From: an uncultured Planctomycetales bacterium
GTDB taxonomy: Bacteria; Omnitrophota; Gorgyraeia; Zapsychrales; Fredricksoniimonadaceae
Direction: 5' to 3'
NCBI GenBank assembly: GCA_964438075.1
Contig: CAYTIW010000007.1
Coordinates: forward strand, 1-64,000
DNA: 64,000 nucleotides
Positions 8,449 through 13,791 of the stretch are shown here, piece by piece. The position numbers were made by a program, and so were the translations under genes. The notes below the pieces were generated by a model. That model made no database searches and was not told the origin of the DNA. It was given only the letters and a program-made list of their open reading frames with translations. Within the stretch, counting starts at the first letter, position 1; every line of letters begins with the position of its first letter.

Positions 8449-9915
8449 ATGAGCATAAAAGTACAGTATACGGAAGTCGGATACGTGAAAGCCATCCGCG
8501 GTTGTATCGTTATCGTGACCGGTTTTGGCAATTGCATTAACGGCCAGTTGATCCGGTTCGGATACGGCACTATCGGGATGGTTGTCGGGTTCACGGAGAC
8601 AGAGGCCCAGGTGCTGATCCTGAAAGAGACAGAAAAGATACGTACCGGCCAGGAGGCGCAAGCTTCGGTTGAACCTCTGGTCACACCCGTTGGAAAGAAT
8701 TTTATCGGCCGTATAGTTAATCCGCTAGCCGAGCCGTTGGATGGGCTGGGGCCGATCGTGCCGGATGATATTGCACCGATCTTTCCGGAATCGCCTCCCA
8801 TCCTGGACCGGCAGCCTTTGAACAAGACCTTGGAAACCGGGATCAAAGTCCTCGATGCCATGATCCCTATCGGGCGCGGTCAGCGGGAATTGATCCTCGG
8901 CGATAAAATGACCGGGAAGACCACCTTTGTTACGGATACGATCGTCAACCAGAAAGATGCCGGGGTAATATGTATTTATTGCGGTATCGGCAAGGCGCGT
9001 TCCAGCCTGGCAAAAGTGGTGCAGCTTTTCAAGGACCGCGGATGTTTCGATTACAGCATAATAGTTTCCGCCTCGGCATCCTCACCGCCTGGCCAGCAGT
9101 ATCTGGCCCCGTACGTGGCCTGTTCATTGGGGGAGTATTTCATGCGTCGCGGACAGGATGTTTTTATCGGATTCGACGATTTCACTAAGCATGCCTGGTC
9201 TTACCGGGAGATATCCTTACTATTGGGACGGCCGCCGGGGCGTGATTCTTATCCGGGAGACATATTTTATCTTCACTCCAAAATGATCGAACGCGCCTGT
9301 TTCCTTTCCAAGGAGAAAGGCGGAGGGTCCATGACTTTCTTCCCGATCGTTGAGATACTCGAAGGGGATCTTACCGCCTTCGTGCCCTCGAACCTGGTCT
9401 CCATGACAGACGGTCAGATATACCTCAGCGCCCAGCTTTTCGGTGAAGGGCAGAAACCGGCCCTGGATCTAGGCTTGTCCGTTTCCCGGGTTGGATCCAA
9501 GGTCCAATGGCCGGCTATCAAGGCGTTGTCCGGGCCTCTGCGTTTGGAGTACCTGCAGTACCGCGAATTGCTGCGGATTTCCAAGTTAAAGACCTCCGGT
9601 CAGTCTGAGGACATGAAGCAGAAATTGAAACGCGGTTCGATACTGACCGCCATCCTCCGGCAGTACAAGGATTCGCCGGTGTGCCAGGAAATGCAGGTGT
9701 TGATATTCTACGCCTTTAACAAGAAGTATCTGAACGATTTCACAATCGAGCAGGTCGACGCTTTTCAGAATAGCTGTCTGGAGTATACCAAGAACGTGAA
9801 GCCGGAATTTTTGACGCTATTGAGAGAGCGCCGCAAGTTGGACCCCGAGATCGAGAAATTGATGGATGAAGTTATAAATGGCCTGTCAGCGCAAGTAACT
9901 GGGAAGGGGCATTAA
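8449..9915 (+). CDS. atpA: F1-ATPase alpha-subunit homolog (divergent)
   Basis: Walker A GDKMTGKTT; LLGRPPGRDSYPGDIFYLHSKMIERA (canonical [24 protein letters not shown]); GGGSMTFFPIVE; SVSRVGSKVQ. The resemblance to alpha runs the full length. Confidence 0.85.
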   Translation: MSIKVQYTEVGYVKAIRGCIVIVTGFGNCINGQLIRFGYGTIGMVVGFTETEAQVLILKETEKIRTGQEAQASVEPLVTPVGKNFIGRIVNPLAEPLDGLGPIVPDDIAPIFPESPPILDRQPLNKTLETGIKVLDAMIPIGRGQRELILGDKMTGKTTFVTDTIVNQKDAGVICIYCGIGKARSSLAKVVQLFKDRGCFDYSIIVSASASSPPGQQYLAPYVACSLGEYFMRRGQDVFIGFDDFTKHAWSYREISLLLGRPPGRDSYPGDIFYLHSKMIERACFLSKEKGGGSMTFFPIVEILEGDLTAFVPSNLVSMTDGQIYLSAQLFGEGQKPALDLGLSVSRVGSKVQWPAIKALSGPLRLEYLQYRELLRISKLKTSGQSEDMKQKLKRGSILTAILRQYKDSPVCQEMQVLIFYAFNKKYLNDFTIEQVDAFQNSCLEYTKNVKPEFLTLLRERRKLDPEIEKLMDEVINGLSAQVTGKGH

Positions 9916-9978
9916 ATTTAGTTCTTATGCGGATGTGTTTTATCTGAGGCTGCTAGAGGTGAGGGAGAAAAGCGTTCT

Positions 9979-10248
9979 ATGCCACCATTATATAAGGGGA
10001 ATTTCCGTTGCGTGATCTTGAGCGCCAAGCGTTTGGTATTTGAGGCTGAGATAAACAGCCTTTTTATTACCGGTGATAGGGGAGAGTATGAGCTTTTGGC
10101 ATATCATTATCCTCTTATCGGTATCGTTAAAGGCGATATTGTGATCAATTGGGAAAAACGTTTGCCGGTAAGGGGCGGGGTGGTGCGGTTCTTCGCTAAT
10201 GAATGCAATGTCATGATCGAAGAAGCCCCAGCTCAGAAAACCAACTGA
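9979..10248 (+). CDS. atpC: F1 epsilon-subunit-like protein with the beta-sandwich domain only
   Basis: 89 aa. GEYELLAYHYPLIGIVKGDIVI ... VRGGVVRFFANECNVMIEEA matches the epsilon N-terminal domain pattern (EG.GIL.GH.P....L..G.+.+ ... VSGGF.EV..N.VTILA). The C-terminal two-helix hairpin is absent. Confidence 0.6.
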   Translation: MPPLYKGNFRCVILSAKRLVFEAEINSLFITGDRGEYELLAYHYPLIGIVKGDIVINWEKRLPVRGGVVRFFANECNVMIEEAPAQKTN

Positions 10249-10263
10249 GATTAGAGGGAGGCC

Positions 10264-10482
10264 ATGTTAGCTGAAACATTCATTATTATTACGGTAATGT
10301 TCATAGCTGTTATGGGGCCGAACGTCGTCATCGGTATGCTGGGCTATGCCGTGATCAAAGCGCTAAGTAGAAATCCCTCTGCCGCTTCCAAGATCTTCGG
10401 AGCGATGGTCATCATGTTGATATTCGTGGAGGCGATATCGATCGTGGCCATGATGGTGATTTTCCAACTTTTTGCGAGGTAA
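10264..10482 (+). CDS. atpE: Fo c-subunit (proteolipid) homolog
   Basis: 72-aa two-helix hairpin with polar loop SRNP (canonical R-[QN]-P) and a helix-2 carboxylate in LIFVEAISIV. Helix 1 lacks the usual GxGxGxG packing motif. Confidence 0.7.
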   Translation: MLAETFIIITVMFIAVMGPNVVIGMLGYAVIKALSRNPSAASKIFGAMVIMLIFVEAISIVAMMVIFQLFAR

Positions 10483-11486: not shown

Positions 11487-11498
11487 AAAGAGCTCGTA

Positions 11499-12356
11499 AT
11501 GGGTAAAGCCAACAAGGTCAAAAGAGAGATGGTGGAGGTCCGTGACTTGGTCGATCTGGTCCAGGTCCTGAAGGATATTGCGGACATGAAGTTCCACGAT
11601 CTGTTTGCCAAACGCGGGGGGTTCCAAAGGTTCGGCGAATCGTTCTCCGAGTTCTTTCGTCTTTTAAAGTATACCGAAGTGGCGCATCCCCTGATAACGA
11701 ATGAGAACCCCAATACCTGCATAGTGGTCATCACAACTGAGGAAGGTTTTGTCGGCGACTTGAACAACAAGGTGGTGGTGCGGGCGATCGAGGAGCGGGA
11801 ACATTATCCTGGGGCCATCTTTGTTACAGTGGGCCGCAAGGGCGTGGCCAAGCTCGAGATGATGGGTATCAAGAATGTCAGGACTTTCGAGGAAGTCGCA
11901 GAGCAGGGGATGTACGAAATAGCAGTTCAGCTCAAGGACTTTCTCGTCGAACAGGTCATGCAGGGCAAGATCGGGAAGGTCTTGGTGGTCTACCCTTGGC
12001 CCAAGGACCTGCAGACGGTCAAGTCCAGGGTGGTGAAATTGTTGCCGTGCGAGTTCATCATGCAGCAGCAGACGCAGACGGTCGAGCTTTTCAGCAAAGT
12101 CATTGAGGAATCTGACCCGCTGGAGATCATCGGCTACCTGGCCACGCTCTGGATATCGTCCAAGATCTACGAGATCATGTTCGACACGAGCATTGCGGCC
12201 GTTTCCGCCCAGTCGCAGCAGTTGGAGACCAGCGTCGGCAATGTCCGCAAGGAGGCCATGGCGGTCAAGCTGAAATACCGCAAAGCCCGTAAAGGTGATA
12301 TTGACAAGAGCCTTCGGGAAGTCTTTTCTTCGAGGATGATGACGGTAAAGCAATAA
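11499..12356 (+). CDS. atpG: F1 gamma-subunit homolog (divergent)
   Basis: 285 aa. [15 protein letters not shown] (canonical ITSDRGLCGGFN.N), TVGRKG, and a C-terminal helix [43 protein letters not shown] (canonical ASE..ARM.AM..AT.NA...I..L.L.YN+ARQA.IT.EL.EI). Confidence 0.75.
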
Positions 12357-12366
12357 AAAGGAAGCT

Positions 12367-13791
12367 ATGAGCAGCAATACGCAGAATACGATCCAGAACC
12401 GCAAGGCCTCGGGCCGCGTTGTGGCCATCCAGGGGCCGGTGGTGGATGTCGCTTTCCATGACGGAGAGCCGTCGCCAGCCGTTTATGACTGCATTGAGGT
12501 GTGGGCTTATGACGCCAGAAAGATAACGTTGCAGTGCGCCGAGCATTTGGGAAGCGGCCTGGTCAGGTGCATCTCCCTGCAGGACACTTTGAACCTGCAA
12601 CAGAATGCGCCTTGTTATTGTACCTATAAACCCATCGCCGTTCCCATCGGGGAAGGCTGTTTTGGACGGGTCATGGACACCTCCGGGCGGCCTTTGGACA
12701 ACGGAGGCACCTTCGAGAACTGTCCCAATCTTGTCCCGATACGCCAGATGACCAGGGAAGTGACCTTTGATCTCAAGAGCCGCAAGCGCGAGATCCCGGA
12801 ACTGCTGGAGACCGGTATAAAATATATCGACCTTCTTTACCCTCTGATCAAAGGGTCCAAGACCGGGGTCATCGGGGGCGCCGGATGCGGCAAGACGGTC
12901 ATTATCCTGGAGTTGATCAATAATATCGTCAAGGCGCATGGCGGAGCCTGCGTTTTTACCGGTATAGGCGAGCGCATCCGGGAAGGTAATGAGCTGTATT
13001 ACGAATTGCACGAGAGCAATCTTCTGCACAAGGTCATGCTGGCTTTCGGGCAGATGGACCAGCCGCCGGGGGCCCGTGCGGAAGTGGTGAATGCCGGGCT
13101 GACCATGGCTGAATATCTTGTCGCCAAGAACAAGGACGTGCTTTTGTTCATGGACAACCTATACCGTTTCGTGCAGGGAGGCCAGGAGGTCTCTACTTTG
13201 CTGGGCCGAGTTCCGGCGGAAACAGGCTACCAGCCTACCATGGCTTCGGAGGTGAACGGGGTCCAGGAACGCATCCGTTCGATAGATGCAGGCGGTTCGA
13301 TAACCGCCATGCAGGCGGTCTACGTCCCGGCCGACGATATGACGGACCCGGCGGTAGTGGCTATTTTTGCGACTTTGGACGGCAATATAGTGCTTTCGCG
13401 CGACCTGGTACAGCGCGGTATGTATCCGGCCATCGACCCTTTACAGAGTTCCTGCACCAATCTGGACGTGGCGGTGGTCGGGCGCCGGCATTATGATGTT
13501 TCCCAGCAGGTTATCCAGCATTTTAACAAACATAACGCCTTGAAGCGCATTGTAGCGGTCATCGGCATTGAAGAATTGAGCAAGGATGACCAGCTGGTCT
13601 ATAAACGCGCCGAGAAACTTTATAACTTCATGACGCAGCCGTTCGCAGTTTCTGAGGTCTTCACCGGTAAAAAAGGTGAGTATGTTGAACTGGAAGACAA
13701 TATTGCCGGGTGTGAAAGAATCCTCGCCGGTGATTATGACCACCTCGAAGCCCAGGATTTTTACATGATCGGCAAGGCGCCGAGGATCTGA
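12367..13791 (+). CDS. atpD: F1-ATPase beta-subunit homolog, well conserved with catalytic motifs intact
   Basis: Walker [10 protein letters not shown]; [11 protein letters not shown]; [29 protein letters not shown]; [14 protein letters not shown]; a DELSEED-equivalent GIEELSKDD; [11 protein letters not shown]. Confidence 0.9.

Follow-up and report, generated by a model that had tools for sequence, protein, structure and literature searches.

An F-type ATPase gene block with no local subunit a gene, set between a giant repeat protein gene and type II secretion-like genes in Omnitrophota

Clusters of 'symbiotic', non-respiratory F-type ATPase genes less than 10 kb from type-IV-pilus genes were described in every class of the Omnitrophota, the ATPase and pilus genes being within 10 kb of each other on 57 of 66 contigs, and a role in attachment or motility on host cells was proposed for them (Seymour et al., 2023, Nat Microbiol, PMC10066038). 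In the same study the Omnitrophota alpha subunit clustered with the Mycoplasma ATPases of types 2 and 3; a separate 'respiratory' alpha clade was reported in the phylum, some orders of which also carry a respiratory F-type ATPase (PMC10066038). The Mycoplasma type 2 F1-like ATPase (G1-ATPase) drives the gliding legs and type 3 (F1-like X0) is required for the MIB-MIP surface system; these clusters consist of seven genes, lack a, b, c and delta, and encode a 12-transmembrane protein and a small cytoplasmic protein (PMC12994834, PMC3369863). The DNA analysed here, a stretch of 64,000 nucleotides (nt) referred to as the window (positions 1 to 64,000, forward strand, of contig CAYTIW010000007.1, assembly GCA_964438075.1), carries seven F-type ATPase genes at 8449-13791 (+), no gene for subunit a and, directly downstream, a set of secretion-type genes. 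The block is preceded by the genes for a giant protein with Asn-Trp (NW) repeats and for an anchored protein, here called up448. The locus adds one more case to the Omnitrophota 'symbiotic' F-type ATPase/pilus family; its core interpretation was already published in 2023, and the novelty of the locus was overestimated in the initial annotation of this DNA. The c, c' and b-delta genes and the missing subunit a are unmentioned in the text and stored supplements of Seymour et al. (2023), which give no subunit inventory, and literature searches returned no further account of this cluster as lacking subunit a. Thus no description appears to exist of the inventory of subunits, the joint loss of the alpha/delta contact, the invariant presence of the NW-repeat and up448 genes on the flank, or the mismatch with Mycoplasma types 2 and 3.

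Genes were called by Pfam and NCBIfam profile searches of the open reading frames (ORFs) of the window, scored against curated cut-offs; the scores of the hidden Markov models (HMMs) were calibrated by running E. coli AtpA and AtpD on the same models. Relatives were collected by scanning an alignment of gamma through one genome per species, which yielded 79 Omnitrophota loci and one canonical actinobacterial operon, and the six-frame ORFs of the related loci were searched with the window proteins. Subunit a was sought by phmmer with two atpB sequences (E. coli and Ilumatobacteraceae) and with PF00119, for which the positive control, a genuine atpB, gave 1e-56. The host organism is an Omnitrophota bacterium. 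Every one of the closest homologues of alpha and beta (70-90% identity) bears the name Omnitrophota or Omnitrophica, as do the nearest gamma relatives, and the generic label 'uncultured Planctomycetales' is found on some metagenome-assembled genomes that carry related loci.

The seven genes are tightly packed in the order alpha, epsilon, c, c', b-delta, gamma, beta; Pfam and NCBIfam profiles and hhalign agree on this set and its non-canonical order, both of which had been put forward in the initial annotation. The catalytic and rotor-contact motifs are intact. Alpha (8449-9915, +; 488 amino acids, aa; PF00006, 1e-69) retains Walker A (GDKMTGKT) and the Arg finger (SVSRVG). Beta (12367-13791, +; 474 aa) retains Walker A and B, the catalytic Glu and a DELSEED-like loop (EELSKDD), and by these motifs it appears catalytically intact, as was first supposed. 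Both exceed the canonical equivalog cut-offs, alpha with 521.6 bits on the atpA model TIGR00962 (cut-off 484.45; E. coli, 869) and beta with 537.9 bits on the atpD model TIGR01039 (cut-off 462.85; E. coli, 875). The best matches of alpha among solved structures are ordinary bacterial F1 alphas (420-478 bits). Identity to E. coli is 37% for alpha, 47% for beta and 16% (over aligned columns) for gamma; within the family, identity to the window proteins is 63-91% for alpha and 68-97% for beta. Gamma (11499-12356, +; 285 aa; PF00231, 2e-28) is full length yet divergent, with 73 bits on TIGR01146 against a cut-off of 194. Alpha and gamma had both been called clearly divergent, which is borne out for gamma and not for alpha, since the latter passes its cut-off. 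Family-wide, alpha lacks about 20 N-terminal residues (the delta-binding helix); its match to the profile NF009884 begins at position 23 of 507, and that of E. coli AtpA at position 4.

Epsilon (9979-10248, +; 89 aa) misses its equivalog cut-off (25 vs 67 bits) and matches PF02823 only, in keeping with the earlier description of a subunit reduced to its beta-sandwich. The C-terminal inhibitory helices are lacking, with a family median of 94 aa vs 139 aa in E. coli, and the family-wide loss of this domain would bias the enzyme towards hydrolysis. Subunit c (10264-10482, +; 72 aa; PF00137) also falls short of its cut-off (21 vs 44 bits). Its cytoplasmic loop R36-N37-P38 is kept in 70 of 70 sequences; with this loop and the catalytic motifs retained, the catalytic and gamma- or rotor-contacting residues singled out in the initial annotation are conserved. 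Glu56, aligned with E. coli Asp61, is kept in 66 of 70 and is followed by Ala, and the helix-1 position that was matched by hand to the Gln of Na+ sites is hydrophobic. In c-rings, Glu followed by Ala together with a hydrophobic residue at that helix-1 position points to a simple H+-type site, and the sequence of subunit c suggests a site of this kind. The next gene encodes c' (10486-10716, +; 76 aa), a two-helix protein that gives no Pfam match and is a divergent c paralogue by profile-profile comparison (hhalign 98%, E 2.5e-13, 74 columns; alignments from 24-28 species). The equivalent Glu is kept in only 48 of 64 c' sequences, and the loop Pro and the P-C of helix 1 are the only invariant residues.

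The b-delta fusion (10731-11486, +; 251 aa), which is likewise far under the equivalog cut-off, consists of one transmembrane helix, a b-type coiled coil and a delta/OSCP C-terminal domain. Residues 9-158 match the b model NF009992 and residues 166-236 match positions 97-168 of the 172 of the OSCP profile, which leaves no room for the delta N-domain; the fusion had been recognised before, and it carries the C-terminal domain of delta only. Mycobacterial AtpH, cited earlier as its precedent, is the more distant match (NF009961, E 1e-3), the long b of N-ATPases being nearer (TIGR03321, E 2.4e-11). The N-terminal helix of alpha and the N-domain of delta are both absent, so that the canonical contact between stalk and head has lost both its partners together.

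Subunit a is absent locally, as the initial annotation had it. Across all frames of the 64-kb window, the E. coli and Ilumatobacteraceae atpB queries found no similar ORF (best score, E 0.04, antisense junk), PF00119 gave no match among the scanned window ORFs, and each of the 79 species-level loci is free of atpB-like ORFs within 10 kb. The largest gap inside the ATPase block across the loci is 482 nt, which is too short for a 200-aa gene, so that no subunit a is hidden within the block; nor does the block contain AtpI. Transmembrane-rich ORFs near the clusters were considered as subunit a and rejected; they give no Pfam match and are artefacts that lie antisense to the repeat gene. A minimal stator channel made of c' or b was also rejected, there being no conserved membrane Arg in either; none was noted in the up448 consensus, which was judged by eye only. 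The per-genome KEGG Orthology (KO) lists in the source data of Seymour et al. (2023) cover two genomes only, and in the list of a Velamenicoccia genome (94.5% complete) K02111 and K02112 (alpha and beta) are present and K02108 (subunit a), K02109, K02110, K02113 and K02115 are absent (PMC10066038).

The gene block is real and strongly conserved in Omnitrophota. The same 17-gene order is found in 79 species and runs from the NW-repeat giant protein and up448 through alpha, epsilon, c, c', b-delta, gamma and beta to GspE, GspF, (peptidase MA), GspG, two minor pseudopilins, GspK, a PilM-PilN fusion and (PilO). All seven ATPase genes are present in 64 of the 79 species-level loci, 54 loci have these together with up448 and gspE, 50 are complete through pilMN, and none of the 79 is non-colinear. 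Between the last base of beta (13791) and the first of gspE (13794) lie the 2 nt that had been noted at the outset, and the two genes are adjacent in all 68 related loci that reach gspE (median gap, 3 nt). The first strong terminator-like hairpin in the window is found at 25812-25846, past two glycosyltransferase genes, and the TPR, PMT_2 and GT2 genes that lead up to it are probably transcribed with the ATPase and secretion genes, as the last part of one unit.

The order could have been simply the norm of the lineage, a possibility raised in the initial annotation. This holds for the present paralogous cluster; against it as a norm for the phylum stands the separate 'respiratory' alpha clade (PMC10066038). 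No respiratory-type Omnitrophota alpha was recovered among the homologues. In a 2026 preprint, alpha and beta were reported in 125 of 176 complete Omnitrophota genomes and gamma in only 30, a pattern that fits the divergent gammas of this cluster. V/A-type ATPase subunits have been reported in 70-99% of the dominant Omnitrophota class. As a side observation, the KO lists of genomes 58 and 221 in the source data of Seymour et al. (2023) contain the V/A-type subunits I and K (K02123, K02124) and lack the catalytic subunits A and B (K02117, K02118), which may stem from a threshold artefact or from an orphan V-type membrane sector.

The reading that we favour, by a narrow balance of probability, is that of an F1Fo derivative without subunit a that acts as an ATP-driven rotary motor with no ion path and serves the adjacent envelope apparatus. 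Hydrolysis of ATP by alpha3beta3 would rotate gamma-epsilon and a ring of c, possibly with c', while the catalytic head would be held by the single-pass b-delta arm. With subunit a missing there would be no ion path, hence neither ATP synthesis nor ion pumping, and the enzyme is proposed to work as a motor only. Its mechanical output would serve the probably co-transcribed GspE-F-G-K-L-M pseudopilus machine, up448 and the secreted NW-repeat fibre, and with this joint apparatus the cell may attach to host or prey cells or move on them. The assembly of the complex, its direction of operation and the target of its torque are proposed in part by analogy with Mycoplasma gliding and MIB-MIP. A more specific version, in which the rotor (gamma-epsilon and the c/c' ring) is coupled in the inner membrane to the pseudopilus and to stalk proteins bearing the NW-repeat fibre, is offered tentatively and is rather doubtful; in that case the locus would represent an ATP-driven rotary machine of a new class, one that spans the envelope and serves to attach to hosts, to glide or to deploy the fibre, and in evolution it would lie between F1Fo and the Mycoplasma F1-like X0 motors.

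Several points weigh against the motor. The chief of these, and the main unexplained observation, is the conserved Glu of the c-ring (66 of 70), which an ion-independent motor does not obviously need. The transmembrane helix of the b-delta arm is poorly conserved. The adjacent machine already has an ATPase of its own, GspE, and the need for a second motor is unexplained; any physical link of the c-ring to a neighbour is putative. Subunit a could be encoded outside the 64-kb window searched. Finally, the ion-translocating module at 58055-63764 (described below) implies an ion gradient and, with it, a working ATP synthase somewhere in the genome.

The chief alternative is an ion-coupled F1Fo pump or synthase whose half-channels are provided by a subunit a encoded elsewhere, for instance in a second canonical atp operon, or by an unrecognised partner. 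The retention of Glu56 in c and of its equivalent in 48 of 64 c' sequences is what such an enzyme would show, and c, b and the delta C-domain, all of which are lost in the Mycoplasma F1-like ATPases, are kept here; the respiratory F-type ATPase of some orders (PMC10066038) and the ion-motive complex encoded in the window also speak for it. Set against these are the absence of subunit a from the window and from within 10 kb in 79 species, the lack of a conserved membrane Arg in c' or b (with the up448 consensus judged by eye only), a 94.5%-complete genome with alpha and beta KOs and no subunit a KO, and the invariant embedding in a secretion/pilus operon, which is unexpected for a bioenergetic enzyme. 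On balance ion coupling is considered unlikely. The initial suggestion of an F1Fo-derived ATP motor tied to gspE fits the 17-gene order in 79 species, the 3-nt median gap and the lack of a local subunit a; the retained c Glu keeps ion coupling as its rival.

Less probable again is an export ATPase similar to FliH-FliI-FliJ, in which an F1-like head would unfold or feed the NW-repeat protein or pilins with no torque passed through a ring. The position of the block, between the gene for a signal-peptide-bearing giant protein and a secretion-type set, would suit such a role, and alpha and beta match FliI/SctN models at 168-186 bits. The b-delta fusion also shares the domain logic proposed for FliH. 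Pallen and colleagues are said to have made that proposal, of a b-delta-type arrangement in FliH, in 2006. The cut-offs of the FliI family are missed widely, however, and the block retains gamma, epsilon, an alpha/beta heterohexamer and, most importantly, a c subunit whose rotor-contact loop is invariant, whereas type III complexes have no c; moreover, the one complete homologue of the giant protein carries an ordinary Sec-type signal peptide. The remaining explanation, that this is the housekeeping ATP synthase of the lineage with a rearranged operon and a detached atpB, has in its favour the atpA/atpD equivalog scores of alpha and beta and a public annotation as F0F1 ATP synthase subunits, and is very improbable in view of gamma, epsilon, c and b-delta far under their cut-offs, the loss of the alpha delta-binding helix and the delta N-domain, the truncated epsilon, the separate 'respiratory' alpha clade of the phylum (Seymour et al., 2023, PMC10066038), the V/A-type subunits reported in 70-99% of the dominant class and the constant embedding of the cluster between the giant protein gene and gspE.

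The gene at the start of the window (1-7083, +) encodes the C-terminal 2360 aa of the giant repeat protein, which runs off the window start. It contains 163 repeats of 13 residues in tandem, G-[VI]-N-W-x-D-[LI]-x-x-[ML]-[ST]-x-[AST], followed by a coiled-coil tail. The NW spacing is exactly 13 in 162 of 162 cases, with N and W invariant and no indels between repeats; position 11 is Ser or Thr in 154 of 161 repeats, and N-W-[ST], an N-glycosylation sequon, occurs in 64 of 161. No Pfam family matches the protein, and an AlphaFold2 (AF2) model of 12 in-register repeats gave low-confidence short helices, with a predicted local distance difference test score (pLDDT) of 50, unusable as a fold. NW-repeat homologues lie directly 5' of up448 in about 50 species loci. 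The complete homologue (1324 aa; L049:966-4940) opens with the signal peptide mentioned above, after which a domain that looks like LamG was seen by eye from the sequence alone. On the opposite strand of the window gene, ORFs of 332, 576 and 283 aa are found at 2634-6648 (-), and their counterparts in related loci score as multi-transmembrane; these antisense ORFs are repeat-composition artefacts and not genes.

The up448 gene (7087-8433, +), for an anchored protein of about 440 aa, always stands directly 5' of alpha and is present in every locus that extends that far. Its AF2 model (pLDDT 91.7) consists of a signal/anchor helix, two copies of a beta-sandwich with a 3-helix bundle, a long helix and, at the C-terminus, a transmembrane helix. 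Structure comparison gave no informative match, and the predicted fold is novel-looking. All 79 homologues are unnamed; 952 relatives were found in a representative library. Some of these stand as a module at the C-terminal end of proteins of 1200-2000 aa whose N-termini resemble signal peptides, which suggests that up448 is a general membrane-stalk module.

Downstream of beta, the secretion-type set begins with a GspE/PilB-type assembly ATPase with an MshEN N-domain (13794-15539, +; TIGR02533, 588 bits; TIGR02538, 577 bits), a GspF/PilC platform protein called by Pfam and NCBIfam (15617-16846, +) and a peptidase MA-superfamily protein (16843-17685, +) that is present in 46 related loci. These are followed by the major pseudopilin GspG (17682-18089, +), two minor pseudopilins (18067-18528, + and, GspJ-like, 18525-19148, +), a GspK-like minor pseudopilin (19123-20178, +; PF21687, 7e-16), a PilM-PilN fusion equivalent to GspL (20191-21744, +) and PilO/GspM (21756-22391, +). 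The set thus follows the order of a type II secretion system (T2SS), namely E, F, G, two minor pseudopilins, K, an L-like PilM-PilN fusion and PilO/M, and by gene content and order it looks more like a T2SS than a type-4a pilus. The T2SS equivalog scores are slightly short of their cut-offs (GspE, 588 vs 630; GspF, 325 vs 424), and neither a secretin nor PilT was found in the 64-kb window. In one relative GspE is additionally fused to a PilZ domain (L009:15529-17781), and the MshEN and PilZ domains on GspE hint at control of the machine by cyclic di-GMP.

The unit closes, at 22303-25846 (+), with a TPR protein, PMT_2 and GT2 glycosyltransferases and the terminator-like hairpin. The PMT_2 and GT2 genes (23288-25767, +) lie inside the terminator-bounded unit with the ATPase and secretion genes, and a gene for an STT3-family oligosaccharyltransferase of 843 aa (26087-28618, -) lies just past it; the PMT_2, GT2 and STT3-family enzymes may glycosylate the repeat protein or the pilins. 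At the far end of the window, a membrane module resembling complex I or group-4 [NiFe]-hydrogenase (58055-63764, -) reaches the window end and comprises two antiporter-like subunits and NuoH-, NuoK- and NuoB-like proteins. The G+C content is 0.395 at 52000-56000 vs about 0.53 elsewhere, and two ORFs without a Pfam family are found in this region (54126-54689, - and 54708-55490, -). An Rfam scan of the window gave a tRNA as its sole match and no riboswitch.

Were the favoured reading, an ATP-driven motor without subunit a, true, this would be the first repurposed rotary ATPase outside the mycoplasmas, and a widespread one (79 species here and, with alpha and beta, 125 of the 176 complete genomes of the 2026 preprint). 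It would stand in an apparent halfway state, in which subunit a, the N-domain of delta and the C-domain of epsilon are lost and the c-ring, its carboxylate and the b-delta arm are kept. Two questions are thereby made testable: the role of a c-ring without a stator channel, and how F-type motors were co-opted for surface mechanics or secretion, the latter being common to the origin of type III export ATPases and of the Mycoplasma gliding motor. Annotation pipelines mislabel these genes, and the label 'F0F1 ATP synthase' inflates the chemiosmotic capacity inferred for Omnitrophota.

Among known systems, canonical F1Fo (atpIBEFHAGDC) shares with the locus the alpha, beta, gamma, epsilon, c and b-type subunits, the catalytic residues, the c carboxylate and the R-x-P loop. 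The locus differs from it in having no subunit a or AtpI, the delta C-domain fused to b, a short alpha N-terminus, an epsilon without its C-terminal domain, a second c paralogue and the order alpha-epsilon-c-c'-b/delta-gamma-beta. N-ATPases (atpDCQRBEFAG) are similar in that their b is long (about 250 aa) and has a C-terminus like that of delta, and in the lack of a separate delta gene. Unlike the present locus, which gives no matches to AtpQ, AtpR or a, they have these three subunits and another gene order; the single carboxylate followed by Ala in subunit c is a further difference. Membership of the N-ATPases was rejected on the scores of alpha (490.8 vs a cut-off of 750.5 bits), beta (448.5 vs 752), gamma (23 vs 282), c (14 vs 131) and b (43.9 vs 224.7).

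With FliH-FliI-FliJ the locus has in common an F1-derived ATPase on a protein-export machine and a b-delta-like tether; the flagellar ATPase differs as a homohexamer without c-ring or epsilon, and membership of FliI/SctN was rejected, the best alpha/beta scores quoted above comparing with cut-offs of 380-620 bits.

The Mycoplasma type 2 and 3 clusters are alike in holding an extra F1-derived alpha/beta/gamma/epsilon set without subunit a, in an alpha without the N-terminal stalk-binding helix, and in a functional link with surface proteins of very large size. In both, the gene just 5' of alpha encodes a protein that has a signal peptide and a C-terminal membrane anchor, a likeness in architecture only. 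Unlike them, the present locus keeps c, c' and b-delta, has no 12-transmembrane ORF and belongs to a diderm host with a secretion system as its neighbour. Type 2 was rejected on the MMOB1660 model (391-402 bits vs a cut-off of 600; E. coli, 412) and the MMOB1670 model (414-424 vs 850; E. coli, 495), and type 3 on MSC_0619 (283-303 vs 520; E. coli, 313) and MSC_0618 (374-380 vs 570; E. coli, 427). Since E. coli AtpA and AtpD score equally or higher on these models, the HMM evidence indicates no special kinship, and the grouping of the Omnitrophota alpha with Mycoplasma types 2 and 3 by Seymour et al. (2023) gains no support from the calibrated scores. The Omnitrophota 'symbiotic' loci of that study agree with the present locus in lineage, in F-type alpha and beta genes less than 10 kb from pilus or secretion genes, and in the role proposed.

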